Assembly (NCBI GenBank): GCA_044229265.1
Contig: JBGATK010000001.1
Location: 35,776-99,775, forward strand
Direction: 5' to 3'
DNA from: Minisyncoccia bacterium
GTDB lineage: Bacteria > Patescibacteriota > Minisyncoccia > Phycocordibacterales > UBA9973
Length of the DNA stretch: 64,000 nt
The notes under the pieces are model-generated. The model was not told where the DNA came from, did not search any database, and saw nothing but the letters and a program-made list of their open reading frames with translations. Numbering within the stretch: the first letter of the stretch is position 1; every line of letters begins with the position of its first letter. Shown here in pieces: positions 6,352 through 49,770 of this stretch. The position numbers were made by a program, and so were the translations under genes.

Positions 6352-6891
6352 TTATTGTTTAGGATTAATAGCAACTAATTCTACTTCAAAAATCAAAGTA
6401 GAATTAGCAGGAATAGAACCAATAGCACGATTACCATAACCTTTCTCAGGAGAAATAGTAAGAGTTTTCTTTTCACCTACTTTCATACCTACGAGACCTT
6501 CATCCCAACCTTGTATTACTTGACCTGCACCCAAGGTAAATACAAATGGCTCTACATGAGAAAACTTTGGATCCACATTGGAATCAAAGACTACTCCATT
6601 TTGCAGACGACCAGTATAATTCATGACTAACACATCCCCGGGTTTTGAAACTACTCCAGTATTTGTACTTGTATTTGCACTAGTATTTGTATTTGCACTA
6701 ACTTCATCCTCGGACTTACCTTCTAACTCATTGTTTGTTGTATTTTGCACGTTTGTTTCTATTGTATTATCTTCTAAAATGTCAGTATTTGAATTTGATC
6801 TGGTACTAAGATAAATTCCAATACCAACTACGACTATAACTATAATTATATATACCCAATTTGCACCGTTTTTTGGTTGATTGTTTTCCAT
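6352..6891 (-). CDS. FKBP-type peptidyl-prolyl cis-trans isomerase, membrane-anchored with a low-complexity N/T/S linker
   Basis: 179 aa; GDVLVMNYTGRLQNGVVFDS...FTLGAGQVIQGWDEGLVGMKVGEKKTL...ANSTLIFEVELV is a canonical FKBP fold sequence. Confidence 0.85.
   Translation of the reverse strand: MENNQPKNGANWVYIIIVIVVVGIGIYLSTRSNSNTDILEDNTIETNVQNTTNNELEGKSEDEVSANTNTSANTSTNTGVVSKPGDVLVMNYTGRLQNGVVFDSNVDPKFSHVEPFVFTLGAGQVIQGWDEGLVGMKVGEKKTLTISPEKGYGNRAIGSIPANSTLIFEVELVAINPKQ
6656..6702. repeat. Short tandem ~18-bp repeat inside the FKBP gene, encoding the NTSANTSTNT linker
   Basis: agtatttgtacttgtatttgcact agtatttgtatttgcact read directly. Confidence 0.4.
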
Positions 6892-6899
6892 AAATTTTC

Positions 6900-6929
6900 C
6901 TTGTCCTCTATAGCTTTAGCGAAAGAGGA
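6900..6929 (+). repeat. Palindromic element copy: cttg tcctct-atagctttagcgaa-agagga
   Basis: 6-bp inverted arms around the GAAGCTTTAGCGAA-like core; member of the family listed in the findings. Confidence 0.6.
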
Positions 6930-8055: not shown

Positions 8056-9320
8056 GCCAAAAATATAATAGCTGTTATACCTATAACTGCCATTAAAATA
8101 AATATTATATAACCTATGATATTTGTAAAAATATTATTTTTGAATTTACCCATAGTATCCATACCAGCAATTCTAACTATAAAATATAATACTATAGGTG
8201 CGATTATGCCATTTAATATTGCAGAATAAAGAAGCATTTTTATAGGGCTAATACCTACAAAATTAATTCCTACACCAAGCAGTATTGCAAAAGCAAGAGT
8301 AATATAAAAAGAAAGTGCATCTTTAAAATTACGATAAAGTCCATGCCTCCATTCTAACGCTTCTGATATAGCATACGATGCCCCACCAGCAAGGACTGGT
8401 ATAGAAAGTAGTCCAGTTCCTAAAATACCTATGGTAAAAAGCAAAAAAGCATATTCACCAGCAAAAGGTCGCAGAGCTTCTGCACCTTGGCTAGCTGTCT
8501 CAATACTAAAAATTCCATTTTTATATAAAGTAGCACCAGCCACTAAAATAATAAAAAACATAACTGTATTTGAAGCAAGCATGCCAAACCAAGTATCTAT
8601 ACGCATATCAGATATGTCATGTTTACTAGTTTTACTTTCAATTTCTTCTGGAGTTGTCTCACCCTCGGAAATTTTTTCTTCGACTTCTTGATCTGTCTGC
8701 CAAAAAAATAAATATGGTGATATTGTAGTTCCAAAAGCAGCACAAATAAGTAATACTGTTTCTTTGTTGAAATAAATTTTTGGATGAAAAATACTATACC
8801 CAACCTCTTTCCAAGAAATATCAATAAAAAAAGCAGTTAAAATATAGGCTATCAAAATGAAAGCTAAATATTTTAAATATTTTGAATATTTTTTATATGG
8901 TATAAAAACTTGCAATACTAAAGAGAAGAAAGCAAAGAAAAAAATTAAAAAAACAAAATTTAATTTTGGAAAAATAAGCTGACTAACTTCAGCCATAGCA
9001 CCTAAATTTGCCCCTATATTAAAAACATTGGCAATAAACAAAAACAAGGTTACAAAAAACAAAACTTTCGCTGAATAATGTTTTTTTATATTTGTTGCGA
9101 GCCCCCTGCCAGTCGCAAGGCCTATGCGTGCACACATTTCTTGAACTACAGACATAAACGGATACAAAAATGGAGCAAGCCAAAGCATATTGAAACCATA
9201 TTTAGCACCCATTTGAGTATAAGTAGCTATACCAGAAGGATCATCGTCAGCTGCACCAGTAGTTAAGCCTGGGCCAATAATACTAGTTATATGCTTAAAT
9301 TTGCGTAAGATTTTTTTCAT
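8046..9320 (-). CDS. mntH: NRAMP-family divalent metal (Mn2+/Fe2+) transporter
   Basis: 424 aa polytopic; GPGLTTGAADDDPSGIATYTQMGAKYGFNMLW is the NRAMP signature region. Overlaps the murB stop by 10 bp. Confidence 0.8.
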   Translation of the reverse strand: MKKILRKFKHITSIIGPGLTTGAADDDPSGIATYTQMGAKYGFNMLWLAPFLYPFMSVVQEMCARIGLATGRGLATNIKKHYSAKVLFFVTLFLFIANVFNIGANLGAMAEVSQLIFPKLNFVFLIFFFAFFSLVLQVFIPYKKYSKYLKYLAFILIAYILTAFFIDISWKEVGYSIFHPKIYFNKETVLLICAAFGTTISPYLFFWQTDQEVEEKISEGETTPEEIESKTSKHDISDMRIDTWFGMLASNTVMFFIILVAGATLYKNGIFSIETASQGAEALRPFAGEYAFLLFTIGILGTGLLSIPVLAGGASYAISEALEWRHGLYRNFKDALSFYITLAFAILLGVGINFVGISPIKMLLYSAILNGIIAPIVLYFIVRIAGMDTMGKFKNNIFTNIIGYIIFILMAVIGITAIIFLAWN

Positions 9321-9883
9321 TATTCTCTAATTATAGACACAGAACCATCTTTATACAAATGAACTATACGTGAAGGGGTGCCACCTATAGGCAAAAATTT
9401 AGAATAAAAAGAAACTTTATCACCAAAATACTCTCTCGCCTCATTCTCATTCTTAGCCACAGGATTACCAACAGTATTAGCTGAAGGTGCTACAATTGGC
9501 CCAACTTCTCTCAAAAAATGGGCGAGATTTTTATTTTTTGGAACCCGAAAAGCAAGTGAATTTTTTCCTCTATGTAAATAGTTTAAATCTTTATTTTCTA
9601 TATCTAACACAAAACTAGTCGGCTTATCTGAAAAAACAATAATTTTATTTTTTTGCAATTCACTTAGAGATATATCAAATTTTAAAAGTTCATCGAAACT
9701 AGAAATTAAAATGATAAAAGGCTTATGCGTATCCCGCTCTCTTATACTATATAGCTTTTCAACTCCGTCTTTATTCAAAGCACTGCATACAATACCTAAA
9801 ATAGTATCAGTGGGTATTATGGCGAAATCACCTTTTAATATAGTTTTTATTAAATTCTGATCTGCCCAATAATCCTCTATCAT
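9320..9883 (-). CDS. tsaC: L-threonylcarbamoyladenylate synthase (YrdC/Sua5/TsaC family)
   Basis: 187 aa; PTDTILGIVCSA...AFRVPKNKNLAHFL...IVAPSANTVG matches YrdC-domain motifs. Confidence 0.75.
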   Translation of the reverse strand: MIEDYWADQNLIKTILKGDFAIIPTDTILGIVCSALNKDGVEKLYSIRERDTHKPFIILISSFDELLKFDISLSELQKNKIIVFSDKPTSFVLDIENKDLNYLHRGKNSLAFRVPKNKNLAHFLREVGPIVAPSANTVGNPVAKNENEAREYFGDKVSFYSKFLPIGGTPSRIVHLYKDGSVSIIRE

Positions 9884-9903
9884 AATAAGAGTATATCAGA
9901 AAA

Positions 9904-10968
9904 TTATTTTAAAGCTTGCATTCCTGGCAATGTGCCTTTCGCTAAAAATTCTAAAGCTGCACCTCCTCCAGTAGATACAAAAGTATATTTTTCTTCTAAT
10001 TTTAATTCATTTACAAGTTCTACAGTATCACCGCCGCCTATGATTGAAGAGATTTTTTTATCTGCAATAGTTTTTAAAATTTTTCGAGTTGCCTTGTCTC
10101 CACCATCTTCATATTTACCAAGTGGACCATTCCAAAGCACAAATTTTGTCTTGGCTAATTTTTCTTCTAACAAAACAATGCTTTCTTTTCCTATATCTAC
10201 GATAGTATCACCCTCATTAATTTCTTCTATTTTTTTATTTTGCAATACGCCACCATTTTCTACCAGCACATCGGTTGGTAATAAAATCTTCTTATTTTTT
10301 AAAATATTTTTTGGTACAGAAAAATTCTTATCTGTGATTGATTTCCCAACAGACAAGCCAGAACTTTCTAAAAATTCATTGAGAAGTGCTCCGCCGATAA
10401 AAATGTGATCAGCTGTGGCCAAAAATTTTTTCACTAATGGTAATTTAGTAGCAAATTTTACACCACCTAATATAAACAAAAATGGATGTTTTGGTTTTTT
10501 AAAAGCTAAGGATAAGTTTTTAATTTCAGCTTCAAATTGAAGTCCCATATATGCTGGCAGAAATTTTGGCAAACCTGATACAGAAGCATGGTTTCTATGA
10601 GAAACTGAAAAAGCATCATTTACATATAAATCAAAACCCTGCGCTAAAGATTTTGCAAAATTTTTATTATTTTCCATTTCACCAGTAAATTTTCTAATAT
10701 TTTCGGAAAAAGTAATTCTATTCTCTGGGAATTTGGTAATTTTAAAAAAATGTTTAATAACTGGACTGATATCTGCACTGCCATCGTCCCCCAGATGCAT
10801 TAATATATGCAGATTTGCCCCCTTACCCAATAAATAAAGTATAGTGGGTACTGATTTTTTAATACGAAAATCATCCTCTACCCTATCATCTTTTATAGGC
10901 ACATTATAATCTACTCGCAAGAGTACTTTTTTATTTTTTAAATTTTTTACTTTTTTAATACTTTGCAT
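9904..10968 (-). CDS. pgk: Phosphoglycerate kinase (short form)
   Basis: 354 aa; KKVLLRVDYNVP near the N-terminus, with hinge and C-domain motifs; adjacent to tpiA. Confidence 0.85.
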   Translation of the reverse strand: MQSIKKVKNLKNKKVLLRVDYNVPIKDDRVEDDFRIKKSVPTILYLLGKGANLHILMHLGDDGSADISPVIKHFFKITKFPENRITFSENIRKFTGEMENNKNFAKSLAQGFDLYVNDAFSVSHRNHASVSGLPKFLPAYMGLQFEAEIKNLSLAFKKPKHPFLFILGGVKFATKLPLVKKFLATADHIFIGGALLNEFLESSGLSVGKSITDKNFSVPKNILKNKKILLPTDVLVENGGVLQNKKIEEINEGDTIVDIGKESIVLLEEKLAKTKFVLWNGPLGKYEDGGDKATRKILKTIADKKISSIIGGGDTVELVNELKLEEKYTFVSTGGGAALEFLAKGTLPGMQALK

Positions 10969-24046: not shown

Positions 24047-24073
24047 TCCTCCTACGCCAAAGGCTACGGAGGA
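24047..24073 (-). repeat. Palindromic element copy (variant, reverse orientation): tcctcc-tacgccaaaggctac-ggagga
   Basis: Arms tcctcc/ggagga; the core is related to ttcgccaaagcttc at 35370. Confidence 0.5.
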
Positions 24074-24110
24074 TAAATAAAAATTTAATAGTTAATATAA
24101 AATTAAATAT

Positions 24111-25295
24111 ATGTTAGATATAAAAACATTCAAATCAGCCTTAGACCAATTAGAACTCGAACGAAAAATCCCAAAAGAAAAAATACTAGACGCCATCGAA
24201 CAAGCCATGGCTGCCGCTTATAAAAAAGATTACGGTAAAAAGGGGCAAATAGTTCGTGCTAAATTTGATCTTGAAACAGGTAAAACTGATTTCTATCAAG
24301 TAAAAATAGTCGTCGATGAAAGTATCGCTCGTATCGCACCTGTCGCAGAAGAAGAAACTGAATACGAAATAGCGGAGGAAAATGGCGATGAACGTGTTCG
24401 TTTCAATGAAGAGCACCACATTATGCTTGAAGACGCTCGCTTAATTAAAAAAGACGCTGAAATAAACGATGAAATAGTTTTCCCTCTTGATGCAAAAGAA
24501 GACTATGGCCGTATTGCTGCTCAAACCGCAAAGCAAGTCATAATTCAACGTATTCGTGAAGCAGAACGCACAAGTATTATGGATGAATATGGCACCAAAG
24601 AAGGTGAAATTATCTCTGGTATCGTTCAAAAAATTGAACGCGGAAATGCTTTTGTGGATTTTAATCGTGCAACAGGAATACTCCCAGCTGAAGAACAAAT
24701 TCCAGGCGAATACCTCGCTCGTGGTCAAAGAATAAAGGCATATTTATACTCTGTTGAAGATTCACCTCGTGGTGTTTCCCTGCGTCTTTCTCGCACACAT
24801 CCAAAATTTGTTGAGAAATTATTCTCTATCGAAGCTCCAGAAATAGAATCTGGAGTAGTAGAAATAAAATCCGTGTCTCGTGAAGCAGGTTCACGAAGTA
24901 AAATCGCAGTATTTTCAAACGATGAACATATAGACCCAGTAGGTTCTTGTGTTGGTCAAAAAGGTACACGCGTAAATACTGTGACTTCCGAATTAGGCGG
25001 AGAAAAAATCGATATTATCCCTTGGTCAACCGATCCAAAAGTATATGTAGCAAATTCTCTCTCTCCAGCAAAAGTACTTTCTATAGAAATAGATGAAAAA
25101 GAACACAAAGCTCTGATTGAAGTAGCTGAAGACCAACTATCTCTTGCTATTGGTAAAGGCGGACAAAATGTTCGTTTAGCGGCAAAATTAACTGGCTGGA
25201 GAATAGATATCAAAGGCAATGGTGCAGTAGAAAATAAAGAAGAAAATTCAGATGAAAATTCTGAATCTAAAGAAGAAGTTGCGGAAGAAAATTAA
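24111..25295 (+). CDS. nusA: Transcription termination/antitermination factor NusA
   Basis: 394 aa; N-terminal domain, S1 and tandem KH regions (…GEIISGIVQKIERGNAFVDF…; …GSCVGQKGTRVNTV…). Confidence 0.95.
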   Translation: MLDIKTFKSALDQLELERKIPKEKILDAIEQAMAAAYKKDYGKKGQIVRAKFDLETGKTDFYQVKIVVDESIARIAPVAEEETEYEIAEENGDERVRFNEEHHIMLEDARLIKKDAEINDEIVFPLDAKEDYGRIAAQTAKQVIIQRIREAERTSIMDEYGTKEGEIISGIVQKIERGNAFVDFNRATGILPAEEQIPGEYLARGQRIKAYLYSVEDSPRGVSLRLSRTHPKFVEKLFSIEAPEIESGVVEIKSVSREAGSRSKIAVFSNDEHIDPVGSCVGQKGTRVNTVTSELGGEKIDIIPWSTDPKVYVANSLSPAKVLSIEIDEKEHKALIEVAEDQLSLAIGKGGQNVRLAAKLTGWRIDIKGNGAVENKEENSDENSESKEEVAEEN

Positions 25296-35363: not shown

Positions 35364-35389
35364 CCCTGCTTCGCCAAAGCTTCGCAGGG
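35364..35389 (-). repeat. Palindromic element copy (reverse orientation): ccctgc-ttcgccaaagcttc-gcaggg
   Basis: The core is the reverse complement of GAAGCTTTGGCGAA. Lies just 3' of the comM stop; may also act as its terminator (followed on the minus strand by tttt). Confidence 0.6.
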
Positions 35390-35395
35390 CAGGCT

Positions 35396-36940
35396 CTAAG
35401 TATTCAATTTCGGTCTATACTGCAATGCTTCGAGTATGTGATTCTCAGATATATTAGGTACTCCTTCTAAATCCGCAATTGTGCGAGCGAGTTTTATGAC
35501 ACGATGGTAAGCCCTGGCCGAGAGTGCAAACCTCTCTGCAGACTTATCTAAAACATCTCTTACATTTTGAGAAAGGATTGCGAAAGTATCTAAATCTTTG
35601 GCAGACATTTCACTATTGGATTTTATTTTTTTAGAAAAATTTTTAAAACGTTCTTGTTGTATTTTGCGAGCACTCTCTACCCTCTTTTTTATTTCACTAC
35701 TCTTCTCGCCTTCTTCTCCTCCCGAAAGTTTTTTATAATCAACTTGCGATACAGGTACCCACATATCTATACGATCCATTATTGGTCCCGAAAGTTTTCT
35801 TTTATATCTATCGAGATCACTTGGTTTACAAATACAAGCTCGAATTTTTGAATCTAAGTTTCCACAAGGACAAGGGTTCATGGCCGCGACTAAAATAAAA
35901 TTACTTGGAAAAATTGCATTACCTTTTGCACGAGAAATAGAAACTATGTTGTCTTCGAGTGGTTGGCGCAAACTCTCGATAACTCTTTTTTCAAATTCTG
36001 GAAATTCGTCTAGAAAAAGCACTCCGCGGTGTGCCAGTGTAACCTCACCGGGTTTTGGAAAAGTTCCACCACCAATTAGTGAAACGTAAGAAGAGGTATG
36101 GTGTGGGGAGCGAAAGGGTGGATAACAAACTAGCTCACCTTGGTTGGCGCCAACTATAGAATGTATCCCTGTGACTTCTAAAATTTCATCCAGAGATAAA
36201 TTCGGAAGTAATCCTGCGAATGCTCGCGCTAGCATTGTCTTGCCTGTGCCTGGAGGTCCATACATAGCTATGTTATGCCCACCAGCTGCTGCAATTTCAA
36301 GACCTCGTTTTGCACTCTCTTGTCCACGCACTTCAGCAAAGTCTAAATAAATTTTATTTTTATCAAATACAACTTCTATTTTTGGTGCAGGTAATAATTT
36401 TTTGCTATCCATTTTTTCTCTACTCTTTTCTAAATGATCTATAACTTCACGTAAATTTTTAGCGCCAAAAATTTTTATACCACCCACAAGTGATGCTTCG
36501 TAAACATTATCAATAGGTAAAAATATTTCTATGAAACCCACTTCACGTGCTTCAAGCACTATAGGTAAAATTCCTCGCACTGGCCGAAGAGTGCCATCGA
36601 GTCCTAGTTCGCCTATAAATAATTTTCCTTCACTATCAAAATCTATCTCATTGGCTGAGAGTAGAAAACCTAGTGCAATAGCCAAATCAAAAAAAGGTCC
36701 TTCTTTTTTTATATCAGCTGGTGAAAGTGAAACCACGATTTTTTGGTTTAATGATTTTGGAGATTTAAAATCTGAATTCTTGATTGCCGATGAAACACGA
36801 TCCCTTGCTTCGTCTACTGCTTTATCTGGTAAACCCACAACGGAAAACGCATGCAGTCCACGTGACATGTCTACCTCAACAACAACAATATTACCTTTTA
36901 GTAGTGAAACCTGTGCGGAATATACTTTAGCGAATGACAT
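35396..36940 (-). CDS. comM: YifB/ComM-family Mg-chelatase-like AAA+ ATPase
   Basis: 514 aa; Lon-like N-terminal domain, Walker A GPPGTGKT, Mg-chelatase-like C-terminus. Confidence 0.9.
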   Translation of the reverse strand: MSFAKVYSAQVSLLKGNIVVVEVDMSRGLHAFSVVGLPDKAVDEARDRVSSAIKNSDFKSPKSLNQKIVVSLSPADIKKEGPFFDLAIALGFLLSANEIDFDSEGKLFIGELGLDGTLRPVRGILPIVLEAREVGFIEIFLPIDNVYEASLVGGIKIFGAKNLREVIDHLEKSREKMDSKKLLPAPKIEVVFDKNKIYLDFAEVRGQESAKRGLEIAAAGGHNIAMYGPPGTGKTMLARAFAGLLPNLSLDEILEVTGIHSIVGANQGELVCYPPFRSPHHTSSYVSLIGGGTFPKPGEVTLAHRGVLFLDEFPEFEKRVIESLRQPLEDNIVSISRAKGNAIFPSNFILVAAMNPCPCGNLDSKIRACICKPSDLDRYKRKLSGPIMDRIDMWVPVSQVDYKKLSGGEEGEKSSEIKKRVESARKIQQERFKNFSKKIKSNSEMSAKDLDTFAILSQNVRDVLDKSAERFALSARAYHRVIKLARTIADLEGVPNISENHILEALQYRPKLNT

Positions 36941-41529: not shown

Positions 41530-41549
41530 ATATTTAAATTTGTTCTTTA

Positions 41550-41585
41550 CTTGCCCCGTATGAAGCCTATGGCTTTCGTTCGGGG
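41550..41585 (+). repeat. GC hairpin element: cttg ccccg-(tatgaagcctatggctttcgtt)-cgggg
   Basis: Read directly; ccccg/cgggg arms as at 4641 and 40279. Confidence 0.45.
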
Positions 41586-41619
41586 TGTTTTATTACTGTC
41601 ATATATTTTATTAAAAATT

Positions 41620-41681
41620 CTTGTCCTGCGTAGCTTCTTGTCCTCCCGAAACTTTACGTGAAGGAGGATAGCGAAGCAGGG
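41620..41681 (+). repeat. Nested pair of palindromic elements: tcctgcgtagctt [cttg tcctcc-cgaaactttacgtgaa-ggagga] tagcgaagcaggg
   Basis: The outer copy is interrupted between gtagctt and tagcgaa (compare the intact copy at 47450) by a complete inner copy carrying its own cttg prefix. Confidence 0.6.
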
Positions 41682-42150: not shown

Positions 42151-43098
42151 ATGAAAAACGAGTTATCTAACCTAAAAAGACAATTTCTAGAATACCTGGA
42201 AATAGAAAAAGGTTCTGCGTTGCGCACTATAGAGAATTATGACCATTATTTAACGAAGATTTTTGAAAATGGGGGTTTTGAAAAAGTAGATGATATCACT
42301 CCTGAAGCAATTCGTGAATATCGCCTCAAATTAAATCGCCAAATTAGTGGCAATAACAAAAAATCTGGCAAAACCACTAGCAAAAAAACTCAAAATTACT
42401 ACATGATAGCTCTGCGCATGTTTTTAAAATACTTAGCCAAGCGAGATATCACTGCTATGCCAGCCGATAAAATAGAACTTGCAAAGATTCCCGAACGTTC
42501 ACTCGACTTAATAACTCCCGCTGAACTCTCGCGCCTACTAAACGCACCTCTGCTTCGTCAAGACTTCGCAGGGCAAGCCAAAAATATAGACATAAAAACA
42601 CTTAGAGATAAAGCAATATTGGAATTACTTTTTTCTACAGGACTTCGTGTTTCCGAACTATGCTCACTGACAAATGACATAGATATAAATACCGAAGAGT
42701 TTGCAATTCGTGGAAAAGGCGGAAAGGTTCGCGTGGTGTTCGTATCCGATGAAGCACGCAGTGCTGTAAAAGCTTACCAAAATGCTCGCAAAGACATGAA
42801 TGATGCGATGTTTGTGCAAGTAGGCAAAGAAATAAAAAGCAAAGAACCTACCCCGCTGACCCGCCGATCAATCGAAAGAATTGTAAAAAGTTATGCTACT
42901 AAAGCTGGTATTTATAAAAAAGTTACCCCGCACGTACTGCGACACTCATTTGCCACTGATCTACTTAGTAATGGTGCGGATATTCGCAGTGTGCAAATAA
43001 TGCTCGGCCACGCTAGTATTTCAACTACTCAAGTTTACACTCACCTTACCGACAAACAACTTCGTGATACACATAAAAAATTCCACGGAAAAAGATAA
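42151..43098 (+). CDS. Tyrosine site-specific recombinase XerC/XerD-like
   Basis: 315 aa; N-terminal SAM-like domain; catalytic region ...RDKAILELLFSTGLRVSEL...HVLRHSFATDLLSNGADIRSVQIMLGHASISTTQVYTH. Confidence 0.85.
   Translation: MKNELSNLKRQFLEYLEIEKGSALRTIENYDHYLTKIFENGGFEKVDDITPEAIREYRLKLNRQISGNNKKSGKTTSKKTQNYYMIALRMFLKYLAKRDITAMPADKIELAKIPERSLDLITPAELSRLLNAPLLRQDFAGQAKNIDIKTLRDKAILELLFSTGLRVSELCSLTNDIDINTEEFAIRGKGGKVRVVFVSDEARSAVKAYQNARKDMNDAMFVQVGKEIKSKEPTPLTRRSIERIVKSYATKAGIYKKVTPHVLRHSFATDLLSNGADIRSVQIMLGHASISTTQVYTHLTDKQLRDTHKKFHGKR
42547..42573 (-). repeat. Degenerate palindromic element copy inside the xerC-like CDS (cctctgc-ttcgtcaagacttc-gcaggg)
   Basis: Core ttcgtcaagacttc against ttcgccaaagcttc at 35370; translates in-frame as PLLRQDFAGQA in a variable loop between the two Xer motifs. 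Confidence 0.4.
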
Positions 43099-47025: not shown

Positions 47026-48633
47026 TTATTTTCTAACTCCGTGCTTGCTATGCAATTTTTCTACCTCAGCTTCTTCAAGCTCTTCTTTTTTTTCTTTAGC
47101 TTTTTCGCCTAGGGCTCGCAGGTCTGCATCAGAAAGTTGCTCTAGTTCCCCTACTCTATTTTTTAAATATTCTATTTCATTCTTTTCTGGATTTTCCAAT
47201 ACTTCTTCTAGTAATGCATTTAATATCCATCCCATTCTCGGCCCCGGCTTCATTTGCATATCTTTCATAAGAAAATTTCCATCAATTTTTAATTGAGATA
47301 CCGATATAGGGTCCCGCAGGCATTCCTCTATCATCGCATGATATTTGCGCAAGCGGTAAGGTGCCTCTTTTTTGGCCATACCTACCCTGTCGCATTCTCG
47401 CACTTTCATTAAAGTCCAAATCGGATGTTCGTAAGAATCATCCGATTTGTCCTGCGTAGCTTTATGCGAAGCAGGACCCTTGTCCTCCGAAGCTTTAGCG
47501 AAGGAGGATACTTTCACAATTATTCGGCGCACTGCAGAAAGAGTGATCTGCTCTGTATCAGAGAAAAACATATGATTCCTCACCAAACTCTCCACCATAT
47601 TTATTTCATCACGAGAAAATTTCATCCGCTCCATTATCTTCTTTGCCATCCGCGCACCCACTACTTCATGACCATAAAATGTATAAGCTTTCTTTTCCCC
47701 CCTCCTGCGAGTTCTCGGCTTGCCTATATCGTGCATAAGGGCAGACATACGAATAACAAACGACCAATTTTTATCTGCCGCGTGGCCGAGTGCCTGAACT
47801 AAGTGTTCAAACACATCATACCTATGTGCACCTCCCTGCTCACAATTTATTCCTTCTTCGAGTTCTGGGATAATATATTTTAATAAACCAAATTTTTGCA
47901 ACATTCCAATTCCAGACATTGGATTATTCGACATAATTATTTTTACAAATTCATCTCTAATTCTTTCTTGCGAAATATTTTTTATCAAATCTGCATTTTT
48001 TACGATACTTGTCATCGTCTCGCCTGATATAGCAAAATCAAGTTCGCAAGCAAAACGAACTGCGCGAAGCATTCGAAGTGCATCCTCATTGAATCTCTCA
48101 TCCGCATTACCTACTGTTCTTATTACTTTGTCCTTTATGTCCTTTATACCCCCAAACATGTCTGTTATGCTTATTTTTTCTTTTGCACTATTAGACATAG
48201 CGAGTGAATTCACTGTAAAATCACGTCTTTTAAGATCATCTTCTATGTTTTGACTAAACCTTACCTCGTCTGGGTGCCTATTATCACTATATTTACCTTC
48301 TAGTCGATACGGAGTAACCTCTATAGTTTCATAAGAAACATCTTCTTCTTGTCCAGATCCGACTTGGACAGATGTTTCAAGTGAAACTTTAGGTATAAAT
48401 ACTGCCACAGTACCAAATTTATTTTCATAAACAGTTTTTTCAAATAAAGATATAATCTGATCTGGTGTAGCATTAGTTGTCAGATCCCAATCCTTTGGTT
48501 TTCTATCTAAAATCAAATCTCTAACACAACCACCAACTAAAAAGGCTGAAAAACCTCCCTGAGAGAGCTTTTCTATCACGATCAATACTTCTTTCGGAAT
48601 GTTTCTTGTGAAATTGTTTGAGTTATTTTCCAT
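47026..48633 (-). CDS. cca: CCA-adding enzyme / poly(A) polymerase-family tRNA nucleotidyltransferase with an HD domain
   Basis: 535 aa; head domain GGCVRDLILDRKPKDWDLTT; HD region HDIGKP; contains a low-complexity insert at residues ~371-393 encoded by the palindromic elements. Confidence 0.85.
   Translation of the reverse strand: MENNSNNFTRNIPKEVLIVIEKLSQGGFSAFLVGGCVRDLILDRKPKDWDLTTNATPDQIISLFEKTVYENKFGTVAVFIPKVSLETSVQVGSGQEEDVSYETIEVTPYRLEGKYSDNRHPDEVRFSQNIEDDLKRRDFTVNSLAMSNSAKEKISITDMFGGIKDIKDKVIRTVGNADERFNEDALRMLRAVRFACELDFAISGETMTSIVKNADLIKNISQERIRDEFVKIIMSNNPMSGIGMLQKFGLLKYIIPELEEGINCEQGGAHRYDVFEHLVQALGHAADKNWSFVIRMSALMHDIGKPRTRRRGEKKAYTFYGHEVVGARMAKKIMERMKFSRDEINMVESLVRNHMFFSDTEQITLSAVRRIIVKVSSFAKASEDKGPASHKATQDKSDDSYEHPIWTLMKVRECDRVGMAKKEAPYRLRKYHAMIEECLRDPISVSQLKIDGNFLMKDMQMKPGPRMGWILNALLEEVLENPEKNEIEYLKNRVGELEQLSDADLRALGEKAKEKKEELEEAEVEKLHSKHGVRK
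47450..47508 (+). repeat. Tandem pair of palindromic elements inside the cca CDS: tcctgc-gtagctttatgcgaa-gcagga, spacer cccttg, tcctcc-gaagctttagcgaa-ggagga
   Basis: Read directly; on the coding (minus) strand it translates in-frame as VKVSSFAKASEDKGPASHKATQD. Confidence 0.7.
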
Positions 48634-49655: not shown

Positions 49656-49666
49656 ATAATTATCTG

Positions 49667-49737
49667 TGCGGGATAGGGGAATCGAACTCCTAACCTCAGT
49701 TTGGAAAACTGATGTTTTACCATTAAACTAATCCCGC
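49667..49737 (-). tRNA. tRNA-Gly (anticodon TCC)
   Basis: Acceptor GCGGGAT/ATCCCGC, anticodon stem TCAGT/ACTGA with loop TTTCCAA; the T-stem has one mismatch in my hand fold. Confidence 0.65.
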
Positions 49738-49770
49738 CTTCGCTAAAGCTTCGTCGGGCAGGCCCGCAAA
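49738..49770 (-). repeat. Degenerate palindromic-element copy between two tRNA genes (core ttcgctaaagcttcg, then cgggcaggcccg)
   Basis: The core is the exact reverse complement of GAAGCTTTAGCGAA. Confidence 0.45.

Follow-up and report, generated by a model that had tools for sequence, protein, structure and literature searches.

Two copies of a putatively mobile 30-nucleotide hairpin repeat within the CCA-adding enzyme gene of a Minisyncoccia bacterium

The in-frame entry of small palindromic repeats into genes is a known route to new protein loops, with few well-documented cases, which come from Rickettsia, some hosts of repetitive extragenic palindromes (REPs), cyanobacteria and yeast mitochondria. 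In the last of these, GC clusters are short GC-rich palindromes of an AT-rich genome that are found in frame in var1 and insert into each other. For cyanobacteria, small dispersed repeats were reportedly described by Elhai and co-workers in 2008 as mobile hairpins of ~21-27 nt that nest and that are found inside genes when orthologues are compared. REPs, which carry GTAG or CGTC tags, are recognised and mobilised by RAYT transposases, and their presence within genes, those of tRNA-related enzymes included, is on record (PMC3733652); REPINs have been described alongside them (PMC3116915). Rickettsia palindromic elements (RPE) are found in frame in many unrelated genes, which are often essential, and their positions there agree with the fold of the protein (review PMC10969869). 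Here, 64,000 nucleotides of contig JBGATK010000001.1 from a Minisyncoccia bacterium (the window) were analysed with regard to a short block at 47446-47508, inside the cca gene, where an earlier note had read two palindromic elements.

The cca gene (47026..48633, minus strand) encodes a CCA-adding enzyme or related tRNA nucleotidyltransferase. Its open reading frame (ORF) of 535 aa is intact and contains the Pfam domains PolyA_pol (5.5e-35), PolyA_pol_RNAbd, HD and tRNA_NucTran2_2, with homologues at 61-75% identity in Candidatus Nomurabacteria, Paceibacteria and related groups that are annotated as tRNA nucleotidyltransferase or HD-domain protein. The plus strand at 47446-47508 reads tttg TCCTGC gtagctttatgcgaa GCAGGA, cc, cttg TCCTCC gaagctttagcgaa GGAGGA, with both arm pairs perfectly complementary, and its coding strand translates, stop-free and in frame as the earlier note had claimed, into VKVSSFAKASEDKGPASHKATQD, residues 373-395 of the product. 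We read this block as two independent insertions of a mobile miniature GC-rich hairpin repeat into a three-residue surface linker of the CCA enzyme, with a probability of about 0.72.

Copy B, of the TCCTCC subfamily, spans 47479..47508 on the plus strand and is recognised by a covariance model of the repeat at 50.1 bits (E 4.9e-10). It comprises the foot CTTG (47479-47482), an arm (47483-47488), the loop GAAGCTTTAGCGAA (47489-47502) and the arm GGAGGA (47503-47508); its coding-strand peptide is SSFAKASEDK, and relative to the empty site it falls between the codons for Val and Gly. Copy A, of the TCCTGC subfamily, spans 47446..47476 on the same strand (39.5 bits, E 1.8e-7), with the foot TTTG at 47446-47449, arms at 47450-47455 and 47471-47476, and a loop at 47456-47470 that starts with GTAGC and has one extra T. 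Its peptide is (G)PASHKATQDK and its position is after the Gly codon, as in the related loci L012, L053 and L059. As single-stranded DNA, the 63-nt stretch folds into two hairpins with an energy of -13.9 kcal/mol, against -6.2 +/- 1.7 for shuffled sequences (z = -4.4), and the units have a G+C content of 48-67%, compared with 34.6% in the window. Both palindromes of the earlier note are therefore real, although they are separate insertions 3 nt apart and not one doubled unit. The four-nucleotide foot (CTTG or TTTG) 5' of the hairpin and a third hairpin directly adjoining the two are additions to that description.

It is clear from the orthologues that the block is an insert. In a MAFFT alignment of the 120 best homologues, 104 have KVG-KEN-IW or a sequence close to it; in these, exactly three residues separate the conserved Gly from the Ile-Trp, where the product of the window has 29 residues in place of GKEN. 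The short form is likewise present in 77 of the 80 species-representative genomes that were fetched with their DNA, and the closest empty allele, in locus L082 (protein P0002), reads gtt ggt aaa gaa aat att tgg. Since the block is missing from all of these sequences, it is an insert at this point, and the element-free orthologues do not share its residues, as they would if it were ancestral protein sequence. The part without counterpart in empty-site orthologues extends over 47422..47508 (minus strand), with 29 codons (SSFAKASEDKGPASHKATQDKSDDSYEHP) against four (GKEN). The view that CCA enzymes have no conserved sequence at this place has to be given up, because the three-residue linker stands between LSAVRR..KVG and IWxLMxVRECDR, which are highly conserved and among the most conserved stretches of the protein family; the insert thus splits this tight linker and not a variable tail.

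Homologues of the product in the PDB span residues 10-304 only and none covers the insert, so it could not be placed on a solved structure and an AlphaFold2 model was used instead. This model, made with a 28-sequence alignment, has a mean predicted local distance difference test score (pLDDT) of 82, with values below 50 confined to residues 1-3, 84-98 and 381-400. The last of these segments corresponds to the insert, which has no secondary structure in the model and is found between helices 365-380 and 405-415. The insert is thus predicted to occupy a disordered loop between two conserved helices. Segments 84-98 and 381-400 are both insertion hot spots.

The two copies belong to a family for which 26 aligned copies give the consensus CTTG CCCGCC GAA GC TTTA GC GAA GGCGGG. 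In this unit, a foot of 4 nt (CTTG or CCTG) precedes a 6-bp stem, which encloses in turn a symmetric internal loop (GAA/GAA), a GC helix of 2 bp and a tetraloop of the TTTA type. The covariance model was built from these 26 copies and used to scan the window and the related loci. The hairpin is not an artefact of the way in which copies were selected. When matches to the loop were picked regardless of their flanks (at most one mismatch), each of the 15 had 4 or more complementary bases out of 6 in its flanks and 14 had 5 or more, a level reached by only 0.8% of random flank pairs. The arms differ in a compensated manner (CCCGCC/GGCGGG, TCCTCC/GGAGGA, TCCTGC/GCAGGA, CCCTGC/GCAGGG and CCCGTC/GACGGG) and the inner 2-bp helix covaries as well (GC/GC, AC/GT and GT/AC), with changes on both sides in 6 of the 8 base pairs; the observed values were reached by 0 of 500 shuffles. 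The foot is CTTG in 12 copies, CCTG in 4, or a variant, and GTAG is found only within the loop of some copies.

With eight strong matches to the covariance model and one outer nested copy, the window contains at least nine copies in 64 kb. The 15-nt core GAAGCTTTAGCGAAG is repeated exactly at 49738-49752 and with few changes elsewhere in the window. The nested pair is located in the spacer between rpsO(S15) and NYN, at 41620..41681 on the plus strand, where the outer copy reads cttg TCCTGC gtagctt...tagcgaa GCAGGG and the inner one, a covariance-model match at 41637..41668 (plus strand), reads cttg TCCTCC cgaaactttacgtgaa GGAGGA. The inner unit splits the outer loop at its exact centre (GTAGCTT^TAGCGAA), and deletion of 32 nt restores the consensus loop. 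The same S15-NYN spacer is empty in L081 and L082, with no covariance-model match. A further diverged hairpin, ccccg-aacgaaagccataggcttcata-cgggg-caag, with a CAAG foot on the minus strand, adjoins the nested pair at 41545-41590 and is a weak match to the model (8.2 bits).

The nested pair bears directly on the origin of the two copies in cca. These are direct repeats spaced by 33/32 nt and 81-89% identical, and the sister allele in L081 (protein P0001) has a single unit, tcctcc tccgctaaagctac ggcgga cgaa, between the Val and Gly codons, which is the position of copy B. Both facts are what would be seen if the block were ancestral or locally generated protein sequence, with a 33-nt tandem duplication of a low-complexity linker that is palindromic by chance. 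Nonetheless, copy A has its best match in the window in the outer nested copy at 41620 (28 of 30-31 positions) and matches copy B in only 26, and copy B has its best match in the inner nested copy at 41637-41668 (28 positions). Each cca copy is hence more alike to a copy 5.8 kb away than to its neighbour, which indicates two subfamilies in the genome, and the cca locus and the 41620 locus each contain one member of each subfamily. Furthermore, the two insertion points, V^G and G^K, are 3 nt apart and each is used singly elsewhere, the first in L081 and the second in L012, L053 and L059 (in L059: ggc CCCGCC gacgctaaagcttt GGCGGG CAAG). Together with the compensated differences between arms, the identical cores at tRNA and intergenic sites, and the lack of such residues in most orthologues, this makes a duplicated linker extremely improbable, and copies A and B are separate insertions.

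The occupancy of the cca site is scattered. Inserts are present in 13 of 121 proteins, and on a neighbour-joining tree built without the region these require a Fitch minimum of 13 changes, with the nearest tree neighbour of every occupied allele lacking the insert. Outside the region, P0001 shares 92% identity with P0002, yet the two have opposite occupancy, and the cca gene of L081 has three further GC-rich palindromic inserts relative to that of L082, a sign of fast turnover. At 1030-1060 of L081, an in-frame 21-nt palindrome, GCCTGCCTGCCGGTCAGGCAG, is found near the N terminus of the cca product and is not in the 92%-identical L082; at 1260-1400, corresponding to cca residues ~80-100, there is a ~120-nt pile of nested palindromes (e.g. 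CTCCCCCTTAGTAAGGGGGAG) that includes one family member.

The remaining copies in the window occupy both genes and spacers. At 42548..42577 (minus strand, 39 bits), a copy is in frame in a gene for an Xer-type tyrosine recombinase with the Pfam domain Phage_integrase (42151..43098, plus strand), where it encodes PLLRQDFAGQA. In this frame the consensus loop would give a TAA stop, and the copy has CAA instead with the inner 2-bp helix kept (GT/AC); comparison with L081 and L082 places it in a variable loop. Another copy lies between tRNA-Pro(UGG) and tRNA-Gly(UCC) at 49733..49762 (minus strand, 47.6 bits). Three are intergenic: one at 35364..35393 (minus strand, 47.3 bits), just after the stop of a Mg-chelatase/ComM-like gene (35396..36940, minus strand); one at 6900..6929 (plus strand, 42.7 bits), 9 nt upstream of the start of an FKBP gene (6352..6891, minus strand); and one with TCCTCC/GGAGGA arms at 24047..24077 (minus strand, 28.5 bits), upstream of the ORF 24111..25295, which, judging by sequence alone, we take to be nusA-like. 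The foot region of the copy at 6900-6929 places AAGGA a few bases before the FKBP ATG, at the position of a ribosome-binding site, and the copy at 35364-35393 follows a stop codon and is followed by TTTTCC, in a terminator-like arrangement; these two copies may have been co-opted as expression signals.

The third hairpin at the cca site (47417..47449, plus strand) adjoins copy A and is an 11-nt perfect inverted repeat, with arms CAAATCGGATG / CATCCGATTTG at 47417-47427 and 47439-47449 and 11 nt between them. On the coding strand its downstream arm encodes the conserved HPIW and its upstream arm is an inverted copy of it (KSDD). It is outside the 30-nt family and was found in this genome only, and it is a local inverted duplication beside the two insertions. 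With this hairpin included, the fold of 47410-47515 reaches -24.8 kcal/mol (z = -5.8). Separately, palindromes of the form GTTTC-N4-GAAAC (peptide VSxET) occur five times in the window, between 48326 and 49567, against 0.11 expected, all of them in cca (in its 5' part), in the UPF0102/YraN-like gene or in the spacer that separates these genes. They are also present at ~9000-10300 in most of the loci L001-L080, and in several loci the 30-nt element stands at the centre of such a palindrome.

Copies within genes are not restricted to the window, which has three coding copies. The related genomes, with 1.26 Mb, contain ~36 covariance-model matches (E < 0.05), and in-frame copies are found there at three cca sites (residues ~80-100, ~150 and 376), at two sites of a MurI-like gene, in Xer and in the UPF0102/YraN-like gene; host genes other than cca, Xer and UPF0102 are named here by sequence motifs. 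When metagenome contigs were scanned with a degenerate consensus, at least 120 matching stretches were obtained, with in-frame hosts that we presume from their motifs to be PPDK, MnmA, ValRS, AspRS, TsaD, TatD, UvrD, DnaG, Map, ArgJ, GyrB and IF-2. The same protein site is occupied in opposite orientations in PPDK (L088 vs L147) and in MnmA (L100 vs L120). Among the matches listed, 22 of the 36 consensus copies on low-GC contigs (~60%) are in open stretches of at least 100 codons, 16 of the 22 in the orientation that gives PAFAKASAGK-type or PPSLKLRRA-type peptides. No copies were seen in stop frames, which suggests that the inserts are translated. Given that coding copies use both orientations and several frames (LPAEALAKAG, LARRSFSEGG, PAFAKASAGK and PPSLKLRRA), there is no selection for a particular peptide and the element acts at the level of DNA. 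The idea of a PADAKALAGK-type peptide as a selected protein module was rejected on the same ground. An assembly or adapter artefact was also rejected, since diverged and compensated copies are found at orthologous positions in assemblies that were made independently (NCBI, JGI, ENA and Logan).

The 5' ends of tRNA genes are another recurrent location. The 3' arm GGCGGG of the copy at 49733-49762 overlaps the first 5 nt (GCGGG) of tRNA-Gly(UCC) (49666-49737), and its CCTG foot is itself preceded by another GCGGG. This arrangement is shared by 13 related loci, and among the loci with the element at a tRNA 5' end are L004, L011, L014, L019, L022, L025, L046, L053, L062 and L073. In the related loci, the element is upstream of 10 of 58 tRNA-Gly(UCC) genes and 3 of 59 tRNA-Pro(UGG) genes, and it is never present at the neighbouring tRNA-Gly(GCC) and tRNA-Arg genes of these loci. 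Among the metagenome matches listed, it is found at 14 tRNA 5' ends, those of Gly (UCC, GCC and CCC), Pro and Cys. The tRNA-adjacent copies read aGCGGG-CTTG-CCCGCC-loop-G|GCGGG..., such that the 3' arm of the element supplies or overlaps the first 4-5 bases of the tRNA. This layout is exactly as expected from one unit inserted after base 5 of the tRNA, with its own 3' arm rebuilding the start. It is also predicted that the upstream GCGGG can pair with the left arm, giving a hairpin capped by CUUG and leaving the 5' end of the tRNA free.

The element was found in very different hosts. Among the matches listed, the contigs with exact copies range from 30 to 72% G+C, with two modes. One of them, L164 (68% G+C), has the element between genes at 496-525 and encodes a PNPase that is 90-92% identical to proteins named as Vicinamibacterales/Acidobacteriota, and it is from this one assigned high-GC contig, together with base composition, that an occurrence across phyla is suggested. 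The identical 30-mer is also present between genes in IMG/VR viral contigs L083 (1431-1460) and L084 (7621-7650), in the latter just downstream of an ORF that, judged by sequence alone, is presumably phage terminase-like; on the same basis L084 also has portal-like ORFs. Several high-GC metagenome contigs contain further diverged copies, inverted doublets and tandem arrays, the arrays having a period of 45 nt (spacer fixed at 15 nt) or of 30 nt (no spacer). Arrays or REPIN-like head-to-head inverted doublets are found in L158 (760-935), L161 (319-360), L154 (2512-2573), L101 (67-140) and L108 (46-127).

These locations raise the question of whether the hairpin is a functional nucleic-acid signal selected in place, for tRNA-precursor or mRNA processing or stability or as a DNA site for a protein, with the coding copies as by-products or co-opted. 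The foot and inner loop do not vary between hosts, whose GC content spans 30-72% and which include Acidobacteriota, both helices covary, copies recur directly 5' of tRNA-Gly, tRNA-Pro and tRNA-Cys, where pairing of the upstream GCGGG could free the tRNA end, and some copies are at terminator or ribosome-binding-site positions, all of which agrees with such a role. The intergenic copies may have a cellular function, for example in tRNA precursor processing, which would help to explain the invariant loop. As an account of the whole family it is nonetheless unlikely, given that the low fractions of tRNA-Gly(UCC) and tRNA-Pro(UGG) genes that carry the element show it to be dispensable there, that its orientation relative to transcription is not fixed, that no Rfam family matches it, and that no common regulatory role is plausible for copies in the loops of unrelated enzymes. 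A selected signal would moreover be compatible with mobility, and it leaves the origin of the copies unexplained.

In its anatomy, the element resembles REPs and REPINs in being a GC-rich imperfect palindrome within the 20-40-nt range, with a conserved tetranucleotide at the foot of the hairpin and many dispersed copies, which occur as single units, tandem arrays and inverted doublets (L154, L101, L108 and L161), often just downstream of genes. It differs from them in its tag, which is CTTG/CCTG and not GTAG or CGTC, in the conservation of the loop and the internal GAA/GAA motif and not of stem and tag alone, and in that it is not predominantly extragenic, as the listed low-GC-contig copies in open stretches indicate. 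No RAYT was seen in a weak test with an IS200 query on incomplete genomes, and one and the same 30-mer is shared by very different hosts, whereas each REP family is, to our knowledge, specific to a species. The cyanobacterial small dispersed repeats have another sequence and other hosts, and we know of no association of theirs with tRNA 5' ends or identity across phyla. The yeast mitochondrial GC clusters are organellar, with other sequence classes and short AT-rich target duplications, and have no bacterial link. With regard to miniature inverted-repeat transposable elements, the arms of the element form inverted repeats, but no parent insertion sequence is known and there is no consistent target duplication.

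The behavior of the element is like that of RPE, with in-frame insertion in cca, MnmA, PPDK, aminoacyl-tRNA synthetases and others (the names other than cca by motif). The earlier note had drawn this analogy, which proved apt for behavior, in that palindromic repeats are tolerated in frame in loops of essential proteins. RPE are restricted to Rickettsia, have a length of ~100-150 bp and code for a conserved peptide with ~30-50 residues, whereas the element has 30-31 nt and 10 codons and is found in Patescibacteria and beyond; it is five times shorter and unrelated to RPE in sequence and host. The resemblance is therefore one of behavior and not of membership; the anatomy is closest to REPs and the very small dispersed repeats, and the behavior is the RPE phenomenon. 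In Rfam 15, only the four tRNAs match at the gathering score across the whole window, and in four element-bearing loci no match up to E = 10 overlaps the element. A full-text literature search for the DNA core, its complement, the RNA form and four encoded peptides gave no match in the library searched, and nothing relevant was found in the literature on candidate-phyla bacteria and palindromic insertions. The 30-nt repeat is apparently undescribed so far.

Presence and absence at the same sites in close relatives, nesting, subfamilies and insertion in either orientation are the behavior of a mobile element, and we infer that the repeat is a non-autonomous one, of the REP or small-dispersed-repeat kind. 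The unit would move as DNA, probably as a folded single strand recognised through the conserved foot and inner loop, much like REPs by RAYTs (PMC3733652), by an enzyme acting in trans, and occupied alleles would also spread between lineages by homologous recombination. Inside genes, a copy would survive only if it contributes whole codons, is not read in the single frame of its orientation that contains a stop, and falls in a loop, which would explain why the insert is in frame. It would then be translated as a short disordered peptide in an enzyme that stays intact.

Several observations weigh against this reading of the cca block. All 16 occupied alleles of the site have in common two extra residues (HP) before the Ile-Trp and a K/R five residues downstream of the insertion point (IWxLM[K/R]), features that independent 30-nt insertions do not explain and that point to one or a few old events with recombination and not to many new insertions at the site. 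The nearest relative is only 73-75% identical. Neither the window nor 1.3 Mb of related, partial genomes yielded a transposase, RAYT or reverse transcriptase able to move the element, and in a weak test tblastn with an IS200 TnpA query gave no match in the window and 82 loci (1.33 Mb, incomplete genomes). Neither a uniform target-site duplication nor palindromic flanks were found, only an enrichment of GCGGG/GG in the left flank. Finally, the near-invariant loop, identical across phyla, could mean that the hairpin has a cellular function, as a protein-binding or RNA-processing signal, and is not purely selfish.

The shared residues are also what would be seen if there had been no transposition at the cca site and one ancient insertion allele had been moved by homologous recombination only, through short-tract gene conversion; in line with this, the upstream flanks of the 16 occupied alleles track their own lineages and cca is mosaic around the site. 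The mosaic was examined by a three-sequence site-pattern scan of cca in the window, L081 and L082. Over residues 81-280, the N-terminal two-thirds, L081 and L082 agree most, with 11-27 shared sites per 40-residue bin, while residues 361-400 have 11 informative sites common to the window and L081 against 2 common to L081 and L082, a flip for which we estimate a binomial tail of ~5e-5. Further mosaic segments among the three sequences, at residues 281-320 and 401-440, indicate frequent homologous recombination among these lineages. The synonymous similarity downstream of the insert is hardly higher among occupied alleles (0.79 vs 0.75), which means that any exchange of them is old and which does not favor exchange as the only process. 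Nor does recombination explain the two insertion points (V^G and G^K) and two subfamilies at the site, the copies at unrelated loci, the nesting or the use of both orientations at one site. A single ancient allele is accordingly a distinctly improbable account on its own, and complements the reading of two insertions rather than replacing it. Homologous recombination thus reshuffles cca and has probably also transferred occupied alleles from lineage to lineage, in addition to real insertions at two positions.

On low-GC contigs, the positions -5 to -1 left of the foot have G in 51, C in 56, G in 41, G in 59 and G in 61% of cases, and on high-GC contigs G is at -1 in 86%. This GCGGG/GG equals the 3' end of the unit itself, and could reflect a preferred target, a direct repeat or part of a unit lying upstream; a few copies are inserted at the centre of another palindrome. 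A Pfam scan of ten ORFs of the window gave no transposase. L081, the closest relative, has adjacent bAvd and reverse transcriptase genes at 9394-10759, in a diversity-generating-retroelement-like arrangement flanked by the genes for NYN and PNPase. By tblastn, the window has no such pair, the syntenic place in the window and L082 lacks it, and nothing links it to the element.

Beyond the cca locus, we put forward a wider proposal in a tentative manner, at well short of even odds: that this is an undescribed 30-nt mobile hairpin, essentially invariant from Patescibacteria (~35% GC) to Acidobacteriota (68% GC) and phage-like contigs, which colonises essential genes in frame as well as tRNA 5' ends, where its own 3' arm restores the first bases of the tRNA, and is moved by machinery that recognises the foot and the GAA/GAA loop. 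If this is true, the occurrence of the element in different phyla could be a trace of DNA exchanged by ultra-small episymbionts with other bacteria.

The in-frame entry of small repeats is now seen in candidate-phyla bacteria with tiny genomes, where it affects essential enzymes of translation and replication through a 10-codon unit and leaves clear empty and occupied alleles. These proteins vary in length in a puzzling way and have low-complexity loops, which is explained in part by this process, and annotators and structure predictors should be aware that such loops are repeat-derived. In the search for an enzyme that moves or binds the element, its conserved inner loop and the way in which it rebuilds the tRNA start are concrete points of departure, and the single 30-mer is a compact and easily searched marker for insertion, recombination and possible DNA flow between very different bacteria.

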